Shown one piece after another: positions 46,029 through 57,800 of a stretch of DNA of 64,000 nucleotides. Within the stretch, counting starts at the first letter, position 1, and the number at the start of each line of letters is the position of its first letter. The position numbers and the translations under genes were made by a program. Source of the stretch: an uncultured delta proteobacterium. GTDB lineage: Bacteria > Desulfobacterota > Desulfuromonadia > Desulfuromonadales > BM103. The DNA lies in contig CAVQRZ010000012.1 of NCBI GenBank assembly GCA_963715335.1, forward strand, positions 9,983 to 73,982, given 5' to 3'. The notes under the pieces were generated by a model that worked only from the letters and a program-made list of their open reading frames with translations, did no database searches and had not been told where the DNA came from.

Positions 46029-46663
46029 CCACGACGCACTCCTCAGCCCGGCAGCTCGGCCTGATCAGTTGCCATGCCTGCCACCTGCTCAACCGCAAGG
46101 CAAAAACATCCGTGCATGAAGTTGCCTGTTGCTCACGCTGCGGCGAAGAATTGCATCAACGCAAGCCGAACAGTCTCATGCGGACCTGGGCACTGGTGAT
46201 TGCGGCCATGGTTTTCTACATTCCGGCGAACGTCCTGCCGATGACGATCACTTCAGCTCTGGGCACGGTGCAGGCCGACACCATTATGAGCGGCGTGATC
46301 TACTTCATGCAACACGGCTCCTGGGAAATCGCCCTGATCATATTCACCGCGAGCATCTTTGTCCCGTTCCTGAAATTTATCATCCTGATCTACCTGCTGC
46401 TTTCCATACATTTCAAATCGATCAAACGACCCAGAGATCGCACCAGGCTATATCGATTCACGGAAGCGATCGGTCGCTGGTCGATGCTCGACATCTATGT
46501 TGTGACCATCCTGGTTGCCCTGGTCAAACTCGGTTTCCTGGCGGATATCGAAGCCGGCCCGGCAGCCCTTTATTTTGCTTTGGTCGTTGTGACGACCATG
46601 ATCGCCGCGGAGAGTTTTGACCCGCGATTGATCTGGGACGTTGTGGAGGAAAAACATGAGTGA
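46025..46663 (+). CDS. pqiA: Paraquat-inducible protein A, C-half
   Basis: CHAC...CSRC...RKPNS, YIPANVLP, DTIMSGV, IGRWSMLD, FDPRLIWD. Confidence 0.93.
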   Translation: MTTTHSSARQLGLISCHACHLLNRKAKTSVHEVACCSRCGEELHQRKPNSLMRTWALVIAAMVFYIPANVLPMTITSALGTVQADTIMSGVIYFMQHGSWEIALIIFTASIFVPFLKFIILIYLLLSIHFKSIKRPRDRTRLYRFTEAIGRWSMLDIYVVTILVALVKLGFLADIEAGPAALYFALVVVTTMIAAESFDPRLIWDVVEEKHE

Positions 46664-48333
46664 AGGAAACTCCGAAAGGAAGCATGCCGAACAGGCCCCG
46701 GAAGCCGTGGTGCAAACCAAGCGCAGCTTCTCGATTATCTGGGTGGTGCCGATCATTGCCCTGCTGATCGGTGGCTGGCTGACGTTCAAGGCGATGACGG
46801 AAAAGGGACCGGTCATCACCATCACCTTCGAGACTGCCGAAGGGCTTGAGGCTGGCAAGACCAAGATCAAGTTCAAGGACGTTGAGGTCGGCAAGGTTAC
46901 GGATATTACCCTGAATGCAGACCGCTCGAACGTTGTTGTCAGCGTAGAGATGACTCCAGACGCCAAGCCTTACCTGACCGAAAAGACCCAGTTCTGGGTA
47001 GTTCGCGCTACAGTCGCCGCCGGTAAGATTTCCGGATTGGGTACTTTGCTTTCCGGAGCTTATATAGGTATCAATCCGTCATCTGAAGGCGAGAAGACAA
47101 GGCGCTTCAAAGGGCTGGAAAAGCCCCCGGTACTGACCGAAAAACTGCCTGGACAACATTATACTCTGGAAGCCCACAGTCTTGATTCCCTCGACATCGG
47201 TTCACCGGTTTACTACCGTGGCATCAAGGTCGGCCAGGTGGTCGAATATCACTTCAACGAAGACGCTGAGTCGGTGTTGATTAAAGTGTTCGTCAATGCA
47301 CCGTACCATGAGAAAGTACGACAGAATACCCGGTTCTGGAATGCCAGCGGCATTGACATGACCATGGACGCTACCGGCATTAAGCTGAACACCCAATCGC
47401 TGGTCTCAATCATGCTCGGGGGGGTGGCTTTTGACCTGCGTCAGCACGATCCCCCCGGGGAAGCGGCCAAGAAAAACCATAAGTTTATGCTCTATCCAGA
47501 CCAGGAGAGCAGCAAGCAGGAATCCTACGAGATCAAACGCTACTACGCGATGTATTTCGACCAGAGCGTGCGCGGCCTCTCACCCGGAGCGCCTGTGGAG
47601 ATCAAGGGTATCCAGGTTGGCGAGGTCGTCAGTGTCAAACTGCAATTCGATCAGAGCACGCTGGATTTCCGTATCCCGGTCGTGATCGCTCTTGAACCGG
47701 AACGTCTGGATGTCGTGGTCACGGAAACCGGAGAGGTTGTAACAGGCGAGGCAAAGGAAGATGTCCTCGAAGAGGAAACGAGCCATACATACTGATCTGG
47801 ATACTCGCACCCAAAAACTTATCGAAAAAGGCTTCCGTGGCCAATTAAAGACCGGCAACCTGTTGACCGGCCAGTTGTACGTCGACCTTGACTTCTACCC
47901 CGATGCAGCTCCGGCCACGCTCGAGAAGGTTGATGGGTACACGGTCTTCCCGACCATCTCGGCACCTTTGGAGCAGATCGTCCAGAAGGTTAACAACATC
48001 CTTAAAAAAGTGGAGCAGGTCCCCTTTGGCAAGATCGGCCAGGAACTGCAAGGGGCTATTGCTGAACTCACGACGACCCTGGAAGAGATCAAAGGCATCT
48101 CGGGGAAAGTCAACGAAGAGACCATCCCGAAGGTCAATGCTTCGCTTGAGCAACTCCAGGAGACCTTGAACGGTATCGAGTCAACCCTTGGACCGGATTC
48201 CGCACTGAACTACAACGCTCGCCAGGTGACCAGTGAGCTGGCACTGGCGATCAGGTCGATCCGGTCCTTGCTGGAGTACCTGGAACGTGACCCGCAGGCT
48301 TTGATTCTCGGTAAGGAGGGAGACAAGAAATGA
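46656..48333 (+). pseudogene. pqiB: PqiB (MCE-domain) gene split by a frameshift at ~47784-47795
   Basis: ORF 46656-47795 (IWVVPIIA, MCE domains) continues in another frame as GFRGQLKTGNLLTGQLYVDLDFYP...LERDPQALI; CATACATA duplication at the junction. Confidence 0.88.
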
Positions 48334-49080: not shown

Positions 49081-49612
49081 AGGGCAACAGATGGTTAATC
49101 TGTTGCCCTTTTCCCTTTTCTTGAAAGGCTTAAAAGCAAAACCGGCGGGTCGCGTCCCGCCCGACGCCATACTTTTGTCCGGCAACAAAAGTATGCAAAA
49201 GTGCCTTCTCCTTGCGGAGGGCATCTCCTCTGCCGGATTTCTGTGACTTCAAAAACCCTTACTGATGGGGATCCGGCCCTGTGTCAAAGGGCCTGACCTT
49301 GCCGTGTGATTTACCAGGGAAAAGCCAAAACAACCTTTACCGAGACAAACCTCGACGAAAGGAGAGGCTCTCAAGAGCCTCGGCTCCTGCGGGGGAAGCG
49401 CAGGCTCCTGATCGTTTAGAACCATCCGGATTGAGGCTGCCGCCCTGCCGAGCCAGACATGCCCAGCGCAGCGCAGGCCCTTTTTCTGCTTACTCTTTTG
49501 GGCCAGCAAAAGAGTAAGGCGCAGTCGGGGGGCGCGACCCCCGGGTTTTGCTTTTATCTTTGAATTCCAAAGAACAACGGCAAAGGGCAACAGATGAACC
49601 ATCTGTTGCCCT
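49081..49612. repeat. ~530-bp non-coding MITE/REP-like element with nested inverted repeats
   Basis: Terminal palindromes AGGGCAACAGAT..ATCTGTTGCCCT at 49081-49109 and 49584-49612; inner arms AAAAGCAAAACC...GGTCGCG / CGCGACC...GGTTTTGCTTTT; hairpins at 49168-49195 and 49489-49518. Confidence 0.75.
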
Positions 49613-49734: not shown

Positions 49735-50301
49735 TTACGAGATCGACGCCAGGAGCTGTTTGTAGAAATTGTACGCTTCCATCCCACCTGGATTGTCGTG
49801 AGAGGCCAACGAATCGACCTTCAGGAATTCCAGCAGCAACGGAAATCTCGGATCGGCCAGGTACTTTCTCTGTTTTTTACTGAGGTCTTGCGGCTGCTGC
49901 AACTGCCAGGAGTGGTGGAAGGTGTGGTGACGGATCACCCAGGTGATTCGCGCGCGACGCTCTTCAGGCATGCCGAGCCTGGCAAGAATAGCCGCCGCCA
50001 TTTCTGCGCCCCGCTTGGCATGACCGTAGGCGGTGATCCGACCATCGACATTCCGTTCCGTGGTTGCCGGTTTGCCTATGTCGTGCAGCAGAGCAACCCA
50101 GAGCAGGTCCGGGTCGCAATCTGCCGGGCAGGCCTCGATCGCCAACCGGGTATGGATGGCGACATCACCCTCGGCATGATATTCCGGCGGCTGTTGTGTC
50201 CCGGACATCTCCAGCAACTCCGGAATGACGTCACAAAGACGATTCCACCAACCGCTTTCGCGCCGTCGCAGCTCTTTTTCAAGCAGCTCTGCTGAACTCA
50301 T
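49735..50301 (-). CDS. Stand-alone HD-domain phosphohydrolase (resembles CCA-enzyme / RNA-repair HD domains)
   Basis: QPPEYHAEGDVAIHT, ALLHDIGKP, YGHAKRGA, IRHH, D; start overlaps the upstream stop (ATGA). Confidence 0.88.
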   Translation of the reverse strand: MSSAELLEKELRRRESGWWNRLCDVIPELLEMSGTQQPPEYHAEGDVAIHTRLAIEACPADCDPDLLWVALLHDIGKPATTERNVDGRITAYGHAKRGAEMAAAILARLGMPEERRARITWVIRHHTFHHSWQLQQPQDLSKKQRKYLADPRFPLLLEFLKVDSLASHDNPGGMEAYNFYKQLLASIS

Positions 50302-51113
50302 GTCTGGCTCTCTTCCGGGCTCTTGACATAATAATCTGCAGATCTCTCCAGGTTGCTCTCCCAGCGACTGCAGGCGATGATAATGCGTTGCCAGCCGCTC
50401 GGAATAATTTCCTGGGTGTGGGCCAGGTTGTTACGCAAGGTTTCAAGCTCCTTGATCGCATTACGGGTCTCCTTACGCGACTTATGGCCAAGCTTCTCTC
50501 GAAGTTTTTCATCGTAAGTGATGATCCAGCCCTTGTCGCCAAACTGCAGGCAGTCGAGCAGCTCAACCTGCTGGCCACGACGGGTTCTCTCTTCCTGAAG
50601 TTTTTTCGCAATATCAATCCGTTTTTCGGAAAGAAATTCCTGCCAGGAATTGTCGGGGTACAGTTGACGCAAGACCTCCGTCATGGTCATTTCGATCATG
50701 GTGATCATACCGAACAGGAACATACGCATTGGCGGCTTTTCCAAATCGGTTAAAGTGATGATGGCACCCACATGGTCGAGAATGGTGACAAAGCATTGCT
50801 GGTTGATTGCCAGCGACTGGACAACGTCAATCAGGTTCGCTGTATCGGGGATCAGGTCGTCGTCAGGCGTGAAAGAATGGAAGTGTTCGCCGCAAAGCCC
50901 GGAAGTCAGTTCATCACGGCGGACATAGCCTTCGACCAGGCCGTTCTGGCGAACCCCAACCAGATCGAAGTTCTTTTCGTCCATGAATTGCCTGACATCT
51001 GCCGAGTTGGTGCTCTCGTCAAAAGAGACCAGGGGTTCGGCAACATCCATCGCCGAGAACCCTTCGAGGAACAGGCGGCGCAGACGTGAACTTTGGGTGC
51101 CTCTCCAGGGCAT
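50298..51113 (-). CDS. CBS-like domain fused to Swt1-type HEPN domain (putative ligand-gated RNase)
   Basis: N-half MDEKNFDLVGV...GYVRR...GAIITLTDL resembles a CBS pair; C-half ITMIEMTM...LLDCLQFGDK...LETLRNNLAH has RxxxxH; AGGAGG RBS. Confidence 0.75.
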   Translation of the reverse strand: MPWRGTQSSRLRRLFLEGFSAMDVAEPLVSFDESTNSADVRQFMDEKNFDLVGVRQNGLVEGYVRRDELTSGLCGEHFHSFTPDDDLIPDTANLIDVVQSLAINQQCFVTILDHVGAIITLTDLEKPPMRMFLFGMITMIEMTMTEVLRQLYPDNSWQEFLSEKRIDIAKKLQEERTRRGQQVELLDCLQFGDKGWIITYDEKLREKLGHKSRKETRNAIKELETLRNNLAHTQEIIPSGWQRIIIACSRWESNLERSADYYVKSPEESQT

Positions 51114-51341
51114 ACAGCCTCCTCTGAAATGATGGGAACAACTTAAACCAAAGCTATTTTATCGTAAAGAGCTGCAAAGCGCTGATCAAAGCGTCTGAAA
51201 TTTTTGAACTTATTTAAACAGAAAAATGCTTTTAATATTGATAGGACAGGTTCCTATAGTAGAATGCAAACTGCTGGAATACCTAACAATTACTTCCTAT
51301 AAATGACTGATCTCAGAGGATTAGGAGAGAGGGGAGGTCTC

Positions 51342-54818: not shown

Positions 54819-57800
54819 CTCGCGGCCTTGTCATAGCTCTCGCCCTGTTCGCTTCGATCGGTCTGGCACTGGCCGGTTTCGGCTTCTGGTGCATCGGCAC
54901 AAACAGCGGAGCCCATTGGCTCATCGACTCGGCCGACAACTTCTCCGGAATCGAAGTGACCACAGCAGAACTCGAGGGCTCACTGCTCGACGGCCTGGCC
55001 CTGAGAGGGCTGCGCATTGCGTGGGAGGGGGGTGAAATCAGGACTGCTGCCCTCAAGTTGGCCATCCGTCGATTCAACCCCTTCTCCGGCTTGCTGGCCA
55101 TCGAAAGGCTGGAGATCAACCGACTGGTTCTGCTGCTTGATGAGGACACCAAAGAGCCAGGCCCCGGCACCGAAGACTCTGGGGTAGAAGTTTTGCTGGC
55201 TGTCTTTCCCAACTGGCTTGAATTAGCGATCGACCGGCTGCAGGTTTCCGGGTTCATCTACCGCAGTACGGCCGAACCCGATGAGGAAGTGGTGATCGCC
55301 GACCTGATTGCCGGACAGTACCAGCTGGCCGATCAGCGGCTCGCGTCACCGGCATTTTCCTACCATTCCCCCTTTGTCGAACTCGACGGCGCATTCGACT
55401 GGCAGCTGGCACTGCCCCACCTGGTCATGACTGCAAGCGTCTATCTGCCCGAAACCAGCGTCGACCCGGCGCTGCTCGAAAGCATCGCGGTTCCGGCCAG
55501 GTTCCCCTCTCACCTGGAATTGGACGGCGACTGGAACAGCTACAGCGGTCCGGTCCGTTTCGGTGTCATCGATGATCAAGGAGACAAGGTCTGGTTGTCC
55601 GCCCGGGCGACCGGCTCATGGCGTGGCATCCGCTTCGATGATCTCAAGGGCCGCTACCTCGGCGGGGCAATCGCAGGGAATCTCGACATGTCCTGGATAG
55701 ACTCCTATCGGATCAGCGGCCAGCTTTCCGGGCGGGAGCTCGACCCGTCGGCCCTGATCGAGGAGACGACCGGCAGGGCAAGTTTCGACCTTTCCGGGGA
55801 GCTATCCGTCCCCTACGACGATCAACCGTTACAGGCCAACTTCGACGCGGTGATTCACGAAGCGCGTTTCCGTGGCCATACTCTGCAGGGACGCGCCGCA
55901 AGTCAGTGGCTCGGCCAGGACCTGGTCGACCTGGATATCGACCTGTCTGGCGACGGGGCACACCTGCGGGCCGAGGGAGTCCCCGCACAAAGGGTTGATT
56001 TCGATCTCGAAGTCGCTGACCTCGCCATGTACCACGAAGACCTTGCCGGCAAAGCAGCAGCAAGTGGCTGGTTGAGCTGGGCGGAGAATTCTCTGGCGGG
56101 TGAGATAGATGGCCACGGCGAGCAGCTGACCTGGCGGGAAATCAGCGTCCGCAGAGTCGTGTTCCAGGCCCGGCACCTGGCCGGGGAAGAACGGGTCGCG
56201 CTGGCTCTGTCCGGGAACGACTGGGATTACGGCAATCTGCGCTTGAACCGGGTGAACGCAGAGTTGTCCGGGACGCTGTCTGACCATCAACTCGAGATTG
56301 CGACAGAGACATCCTCCGGGCGCTTTACAGCATCGGCCCATGGCCGTTACCAATCCGGGACATGGAAAGGCCGGGTCGAGCGACTGATCGGCGACGAAAC
56401 CCCTTGGGGCCGATGGTCGATGCCCACGCCGACGGACATAACCTGGGATGAGGGTCTCTTGACAATCAACAAGCTTCCCCTGGTTGCCGATAAGGGCGCC
56501 CGCCTGGAGCTCAAGGTAGACAGTTGGGGCGCACCTGACCGAGCCGGCGCTGCGCTGAGCTGGGCCGATATCGATCTCGAATGGCTGCAGCCTTATACCG
56601 ATCTCGACAGCCTGTCAGGACGCACCGAGGGGCGTGTAGAGTACATAGCGATTGCAGGACAACCCTGGTCGATTTCAGGGCAGCTTTCTGCACACGGTCG
56701 GATCAAGGATCAGCACTACGATCTGACCTATGAGACACTCGAGCTGGAACTGGACTGGGGGCAGGACGGCCTGCAGCTGACCGGGGCATCCAGGAGCGAT
56801 GCCGGGGAAAGGCTCCGGATCAAGGCAACCGCTCCCGGGCCGCCGGCATGGGAATGGCCGATCAAGACCCTGGAAGCTGATCTGCATTGGCAGGAGTTCA
56901 ACCTGGCGCGTTTCAACAGCTTTCTGGAAGACGCGCAGGCTGAAGGCGTCAGCGATGGCAACCTCTCCTTTGCTTTGGGCGGCGAGCAGTTGGAAAGGAT
57001 ACGAGGGCAGCTTGCCGCGCACGGCCGGGTCAAGGCTCAGCACTACGATCTGACCTTTGAGTCACTCGAACTGGAATTCGACTGGGGACAGGACGGTCTG
57101 CAACTGACCGGGGCATCCGGGAGTGATGCCGGGGAAAGGCTTCGGATCAAGGCAACCGCTCCCGGGCCGCCGGCATGGGAATGGCCGATCAAGACCCTGG
57201 CAGGTGATCTGCAGTGGCAGGAGCTCAACCTGGCGCGTTTCAACAGCTTTCTGGATGACGCACAGGCTGAAGGTGTCAGCGATGGCAGCTTCTCCTTTGC
57301 CTTCACCGGTGACCAGCTGGAGAGGATGCAAGGGCACCTTGCAGCGAGAGGTCGTCTGATGCAGGGCGAAAGGGAGCTCGGCCCTCGTAGCCTGCTGGCA
57401 GACTTAAGCTGGGATGACAAAGAGTTTCAATGCTCGGCAAGGGTTTCCGGAGCGAAAGGTGGCCATGCCGCATTGAAGCTGACGTCGTCTCAAAGGCCAG
57501 CCCTTGCATGGCCTGATTCCGGGCAGATCGAACTCAAGATCAATGCCCTGAGCCTGACCGCGCTCGAACCTTTACTGCCTCAGGACATTGACGTCGCCGG
57601 AACCATCGACAGCCGGGCCGAGGGGCGCTGGGAACCAAAAGGAGTCGTTGAACTGGACGGGGACCTCCAGCTTCGGCAGAGCCAGCTCAGCTGGGACAGT
57701 GACAATGGCCAGATTCTCCTGCCGCTCCGTGATGCCACCATGGCGTGGCGTTGGGCCGGCGACAGTCTCAACGGCAGTTTCGCCTTGAATCTCTCGGATT

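Follow-up and report, generated by a model that had tools for sequence, protein, structure and literature searches.

HEPN domains that carry an RxxxxH motif are dimeric, metal-independent RNases whose cuts leave 2',3'-cyclic phosphates. The ligands bound by CBS pairs are adenyl compounds. In type III CRISPR systems, the CARF-HEPN proteins Csm6 and Csx1 act as nucleotide-gated RNases and are paired with ring nucleases that degrade the signal. The joining of a CBS pair to a HEPN domain has also been described. In the passages that concern this family, Anantharaman et al. (2013; PMC3710099) list 'CBS and HD (alr3009), active' as fusion partners of a Swt1-like HEPN, and suggest that such proteins might answer nucleotide ligands, regulating RNA stability. 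Those passages amount to one sentence and one table row; the HD type is unnamed there, and nothing is said of two separate genes or of two classes of HD. A single CBS-HEPN protein, DS-11 (PMC13092281; DefensePredictor; WP_000257686.1), is a validated anti-phage system. According to the sections of that paper devoted to it, defense is abolished by Y157A or by changes to the HEPN catalytic residues, the adenine derivative that regulates it is still to be discovered, and no HD partner is described.

The gene pair analyzed here lies in a stretch of 64,000 nucleotides, which we call the window. Systems of this kind were known before, CBS-HEPN proteins with or without an HD having been described in 2013. 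The first-pass annotation had not recognized it as a named defense system, a claim of novelty that is not supported in view of the family outlined in the passages of PMC3710099 and the validated DS-11 of PMC13092281. With the 2013 family it shares the CBS pair, a Swt1-like HEPN with intact RxxxxH, the HD found in some members and the proposal of ligand-gated RNA decay: PF18731 exceeds its cut-off, the CBS pair is fused to it, and the HD is adjacent (fused in relatives). The published exemplars, which we compared by description, are alr3009 and gi 118580987, the latter from Pelobacter propionicus in the same bacterial group; Nostocales members are abundant among the matches found. The likeness to Csm6/Csx1 and ring nucleases lies in a nucleotide-gated HEPN RNase accompanied by a signal-degrading enzyme, both predicted here. 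As the annotation had said, the pair differs from those CARF effectors, since its sensor is by structure a CBS pair, and no Cas10 or cyclase matched in the window. It had also correctly set the pair apart from HEPN-MNT toxin-antitoxin systems: there a minimal nucleotidyltransferase is adjacent, whereas here the HD gene adjoins gene 1, and a potassium-channel-like gene and pqiC flank the two.

Layout and domains of the two genes

Two minus-strand reading frames, at 51113-50298 (271 aa) and 50301-49735 (188 aa), overlap in an ATGA and follow an AT-rich region, just as first annotated:

50298..51113, minus strand: gene 1, 271 aa, CBS pair plus Swt1-like HEPN, a predicted ligand-gated RNase
50721..51062, minus strand: CBS pair of gene 1, approximately residues 18-131
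50418..50435, minus strand: HEPN catalytic motif R227-N-N-L-A-H232 of gene 1
49735..50301, minus strand: gene 2, 188 aa, a stand-alone HD domain with intact metal ligands, predicted to be a phosphohydrolase of the type found in CCA-adding enzymes
50298..50301, minus strand: ATGA stop/start overlap of gene 1 and gene 2, also in relatives
51114..51340, no strand: AT-rich intergenic region, holding the gene 1 ribosome site and common to the divergent potassium-channel-like gene

The ATGA overlap suggests that translation of the two genes is coupled. The 227 bp upstream of gene 1 have a GC content of 37%, compared with 54% for the window, and contain a ribosome site, AGAGGAGG, 5 nt 5' of the gene 1 ATG; a sigma-70 scan of the same 227 bp found no minus-strand site. 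Each gene is present in one copy in the genome, and comparison with three orthologues indicates purifying selection on both (dN/dS 0.08-0.14 for gene 1, 0.11-0.19 for gene 2). RNA-library contigs from relatives span both genes, two of them across the junction, though such contigs may hold DNA and do not show a transcript, and we give them no weight.

The N-terminal half of gene 1 had been called CBS-like. Its Pfam CBS match is weak (E 0.27), but an AlphaFold model of the product, built on a 129-sequence alignment (pLDDT 91.9), matches solved CBS pairs with Z 11.8 and an rmsd of 2.2 across 112 residues. Foldseek concurs, and ESM Atlas returned clusters of CBS proteins only. In the C-terminal half, HEPN_Swt1 (PF18731) scores 34.8 bits against a cut-off of 27.5 over residues 143-251, and the motifs noticed earlier are all present: ExxM at 141-144, LxxLxFxD at 186-193 and an intact RNNLAH at 227-232. 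Fold searches with the whole model returned lists taken up by CBS proteins, and the HEPN half alone, folded without an alignment, gave a pLDDT of 40; the expected fold of CBS plus Swt1-like HEPN is accordingly supported by the model for its first part and by PF18731 and the motifs for its second. Conservation of the RxxxxH among homologues, proposed as a check, was found: in the aligned relatives R227 is kept in 129/129 and H232 in 128/129. The CBS hhTxxD motif, which ends at D123, is also conserved (119/129), as are K126 (118/129) and R130 (125/129) beyond it, and position 49 of the CBS pair is aromatic (F or Y) in 89/129. No longer gene 1 fusion (476-2000 aa) scored among 1753 candidates, which is weak evidence. 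By analogy with the HEPN family and DS-11, the gene 1 product is likely to be a dimeric RNase; CBS biology and the Y157A result make it likely that a ligand gates it.

For the comparison with DS-11, four DS-11-like proteins from viral contigs served as stand-ins, one of which (L097) has the length, Y157 and R330 of the published protein, a likeness judged by eye. Gene 1 and DS-11 have in common a CBS pair directly followed by an RxxxxH HEPN in one chain, with an aromatic residue at Y157/F49. A profile alignment of gene 1 with the stand-ins runs colinearly through 210 columns, with a probability of 94% at 14% identity, and places Y157 on F49. When the HEPN halves are aligned alone their motifs fall in register, with a probability of 8% and an E of 0.004, against 0.29 for a reversed control. 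BLASTP found no match between gene 1 and the DS-11 stand-in. DS-11 is also longer (365 versus 271 aa), and its N-terminal region of about 115 aa has no counterpart in gene 1 (probability 1.4%). Because the alignment score is driven mostly by the CBS part, the HEPN halves match weakly and the N-terminal region has no counterpart, we regard gene 1 as resembling DS-11 in its working and do not class it as DS-11.

Gene 2 had been read as an intact HD domain, and the Pfam HD match (E 4e-10) and invariant metal-ligand motif uphold this. The CCA-type motif set H-x-E-x-D...H...HD-x-x-K...H...H...D is complete, and in both NCBIfam and the PDB gene 2 is matched best by the HD portion of CCA-adding enzymes. 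All ten motif residues (H42, E44, D46, H50, H73, D74, K77, H94, H126 and D163) are kept in 28/28 paired HDs and 21/21 CCA-enzyme HDs. Unlike those enzymes, gene 2 has no nucleotidyltransferase domain, its 188 aa being HD only (48 bits versus a cut-off of 451), and its stand-alone HD belongs to a separate clade: in the tree the paired HDs form a single group (28 rows, support 91/87) apart from the CCA enzymes, with W18, W19, W121, W132 and Y180 additionally conserved. We conclude from these sequence comparisons that the HD of gene 2 derives from the HD domain of CCA-adding enzymes.

Members and sisters of this HD clade were seen in other settings too. In a sister locus (L126:393-3493; G099:C15) the HD shares a reading frame with a Csm6 (CARF-6H-HEPN), and an NE0113 CARF gene comes next; no cas operon came to notice in the 16 kb read, where the contig ends close upstream. 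Another sister (L127) is a solo HD ahead of a type I R-M locus, and in two proteins (P0292, P0293) a C5 cytosine DNA methyltransferase is fused to an HD of the gene 2 clade; no HEPN was seen in any of these three. As for the host's own enzymes, none of the three PolyA_pol-family members read from its genome has an HD dipeptide. CCA addition there is apparently split, in roles that we presume, between a short enzyme (G000:C18:6232-6588 and C42:517-873) and a long one (C25:170610-170993), the latter with an N-terminal DHH/CBS-like part and the HD dipeptide absent from both read frames.

Co-occurrence and genomic setting

Among 44 genomes of the host's bacterial family, both genes are present in 20, neither in 22 and one only in 2. 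Gene 1 occurs in 21/44 and the orthologous HD in 21/44, a count in which two weak matches within frames of 456-559 aa scored as CCA-like and not orthologous. The exceptions are one genome with gene 1 only (G343) and one, 59% complete, with an HD fragment at a contig edge (G318). The two genes are thus tightly coupled within this family. More widely, 31 GTDB loci of gene 1 relatives have the HD directly downstream in 17 cases and lack it in 14. At 16 of the paired loci the junction was examined: it is an ATGA overlap in 11, an in-frame fusion in 3, a short gap in 1 and an early gene 1 stop in 1; in the seventeenth (L030) gene 1 is in two pieces. In two loci (L006:5001-5835 and L030:5001-5703) gene 1 is interrupted and the HD gene intact. 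No HD match lies within 1.5 kb on either side of the 24 full-length cyanobacterial relatives of gene 1. The HD is therefore accessory, as many CBS-HEPN relatives do without it. The conserved pairing that the annotation had proposed to look for holds in the 20 family genomes and 17 GTDB loci and fails in the 14 unpaired ones, and its word 'cognate' was too strong for a partner missing beside those 14 and all 24 cyanobacterial genes.

This tight coupling makes it very improbable that the HD gene is a passenger travelling with defense genes, with no functional link to the RNase. As a passenger might, the HD clade does turn up next to type I R-M and in fusions with DNA methylases; but the two genes are present or absent together in 42/44 genomes, the ATGA overlap is conserved, fusion has happened repeatedly, and a second HD class is fused to the same CBS-HEPN core.

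Around the pair itself lie the potassium-channel-like gene, a mipA-like gene and pqiABC-like genes, and its GC and GC3 resemble those of its neighbors and the genome. Enrichment in defense genes, proposed as a check, did not appear in this window: PADLOC, at 1e-10, matched 4 of the 49 other window proteins, all of which look like housekeeping look-alikes (presumably RidA-, MoaA-, UvrD- and OmpA-like), and no defense island was found among the 49. The earlier remark that no cyclase is nearby stands, as no Cas, Cas10 or cyclase matched among the same proteins. Of the 17 paired loci, 9 have pqiC adjoining, and we therefore take the pair to have been largely inherited in place within the family and often lost.

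Such a setting bears on another explanation, which we consider unlikely: that the pair is a housekeeping stress regulator rather than an immune system, its CBS pair reading AMP/ATP or Ap4A and tuning RNA decay, with the HD a loosely linked nucleotide phosphatase. The ordinary neighborhood, genome-like GC3 and synteny beside pqiABC speak for it; cyanobacterial members likewise sit among ordinary genes, gene 1 is unmatched in 50,697 phage records and has a single distant hit across 72,556 plasmids, and a regulator of this sort is what the passages of PMC3710099 propose. It is harder to reconcile with the very patchy occurrence of gene 1 (21/44 genomes of the family, 18/301 of the class and 6/301 of the phylum, 4 of these 6 paired), with copies 56-63% identical in cyanobacteria, Verrucomicrobia and Competibacterales, or with the defensive role reported for DS-11 in the relevant sections of PMC13092281.

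The repeat element that had been noted downstream is real (49081-49612), a non-coding element of about 530 bp with 37-nt terminal inverted repeats. It has 57 genome matches of at least 300 bp, itself included, mostly at 82-93% identity, and this genome-wide spread places it outside the CBS-HEPN/HD system; we therefore rejected it as a component. Its terminal repeats are themselves hairpins, with a nested 28-nt inverted repeat, and it is abundant in sediment RNA-library contigs, suggesting a MITE-like element or a structured repeat RNA; Rfam gave no match in the whole window. Elsewhere in the window, pqiB appears to be split at 46641-48333 into overlapping frames of 384 and 190 aa, its relatives having one ORF of about 560 aa, which suggests a frameshift or an assembly error, and a TamB-like gene (1408 aa) has an internal duplication of about 125 codons (56675-57420). 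The genome also encodes, besides a long RelA/SpoT-like protein, a short second one (G000:C23:71224-71670; 495 aa frame) with an intact HD_4.

Two HD classes and one CBS-HEPN core

Gene 1 matches 1711 representatives at 50% clustering, and across them the CBS-HEPN core takes three forms: solo, with a CCA-type HD, or with an SAH/Mesh1-type HD. The solo form accounts for 24 full-length and 2 fragmentary matches in 251 cyanobacterial genomes. The CCA-type HD is either adjacent to the core or fused at its C-terminus; among 21 longer HD relatives, 18 measure 460-473 aa, in keeping with CBS-HEPN-HD fusions, four of which were read directly. A scan of 20 chosen proteins, including 11 of the 18 long representatives, showed the SAH/Mesh1-type domain (HD_4) joined to the N-terminus in 9 representatives and to the C-terminus in one (P0131). 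Such fusions comprise 5 intact and 1 broken case among 7 matches in another class (that of G346, 300 genomes), and 3 of 8 matches in the host class outside the host family. Several of the fused SAH domains retain the RKY...PY..H, HDxVEDT and KLAD motifs, and some are partly decayed. On a FastTree tree of the CBS-HEPN core, in which 42 rows have no context label, the SAH label requires 2 changes (origins) and the CCA-HD label 5, and solo genes are nested inside the HD-paired clade; together these indicate that the HD has been both gained and lost. Two distant relatives on viral contigs occupy other surroundings, one (L032) in a prophage, with replication genes to one side and lysis genes to the other, and one (L033) inside a type I R-M locus.

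A search of the literature, outside subscription journals and bioRxiv supplements, found no paper that treats SAH-HEPN fusions, nor one that treats a CCA-type HD as a separate partner. Two observations made here have no counterpart in what it did find: in other lineages an SAH/Mesh1 HD is fused to one end or the other of the CBS-HEPN core, and a Csm6 is among the fusion partners of the CCA-type HD clade.

The two classes have related activities. In the parts of the literature that deal with them, the HD of CCA enzymes removes 2',3'-cyclic phosphates and has 2'-nucleotidase activity (PMC6961547, PMC10673834), and SAH enzymes hydrolyze (p)ppGpp, pppApp and NADPH (PMC9765508) and restore pyrophosphorylated tRNA 3' ends. 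Phosphate removal from the ribose 2'/3' positions is the chemistry common to both.

Proposed function of the pair

We favor, tentatively and at a little short of an even chance, a model in which the pair is an adenine-nucleotide-gated CBS-HEPN RNase with an HD that destroys that nucleotide. The gene 1 product would be a dimeric HEPN RNase, activated by the binding of an adenine nucleotide to the CBS pair, and the gene 2 HD would destroy the activating nucleotide and so set a threshold or turn the RNase off. Since the chemistry common to both recruited HD classes acts at the ribose 2'/3' positions, we infer that the ligand may carry a 2'- or 3'-phosphate there, as do (p)ppApp, pAp and 2',3'-cAMP. 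By analogy with DS-11, the circuit might act to halt growth during a phage attack or in response to nucleotide stress. The general logic of the first-pass annotation, in which nucleotides gate a HEPN RNase and an HD enzyme either turns it off or repairs its cuts, is thus supported, as a prediction from domains and coupling.

In favor of signal destruction we count the 20/44 co-presence, the fusions, the single clade of paired HDs, the second HD class, the Csm6-fused sister HD, the need of DS-11 for Y157 and HEPN catalysis, and the prophage and R-M contexts of the two distant relatives. Against it we count that the HD is dispensable (14/31 loci and 24 cyanobacterial loci are without it, and solo genes are nested), that its clade accompanies methylases and R-M, that there is no defense island, that GC and GC3 are those of the genome, that pqiC lies beside 9/17 pairs and that the HEPN likeness to DS-11 is weak.

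The HD might instead heal RNA ends, which we rate as possible though on the improbable side: the HEPN would cut tRNA near its 3' end, the HD would remove the 2',3'-cyclic phosphate and CC- and A-adding enzymes would rebuild CCA, giving reversible dormancy. Cyclic-phosphate removal is, in the portions of PMC6961547 and PMC10673834 that treat it, the described job of the CCA-enzyme HD from which gene 2 descends. The lack of an HD dipeptide in the three host PolyA_pol-family enzymes also fits, as does the fact that the HD clade accompanies two sensor types (CBS and CARF), the HEPN being common to both. RtcB, however, ligates cyclic-phosphate ends directly, and the host has one, so their removal would hinder repair of internal cuts; the operon holds no kinase or ligase, and many relatives have no HD neighbor. 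SAH enzymes too can restore tRNA 3' ends, although activity on 2',3'-cyclic phosphate ends was not found for them in the cited parts of the literature. Because CCA-type and SAH HDs both act on tRNA 3' ends, their convergence on the core fails to separate signal destruction from RNA healing.

A bolder version of signal destruction, which we hold to be doubtful, is a cyclase-free nucleotide immune circuit. An adenine nucleotide phosphorylated at the 2'/3' position, either (p)ppApp or 2',3'-cAMP, would be its trigger, and products of the RNase might add to that signal in a feed-forward loop; CCA-type and SAH/Mesh1-type HDs would have been independently recruited as built-in off-switches, and their common substrate would name the ligand of DS-11.

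With the basic design already known, the remaining value of the finding is the repeated recruitment of two HD classes by CBS-HEPN proteins. Co-expression of the HD may allow a toxic RNase to be cloned, and if the healing of tRNA ends proved true, gene 2 would encode a bacterial tRNA-repair enzyme existing as a separate protein and coupled to a nuclease of its own. Repeated recruitment also makes the question of the CBS ligand testable, as the overlap in substrates of the two HD classes gives a short list of ligands. The solo, CCA-type-HD and SAH-type-HD forms of one CBS-HEPN core thereby offer a shortcut to the ligand that the work on DS-11 left to be found.
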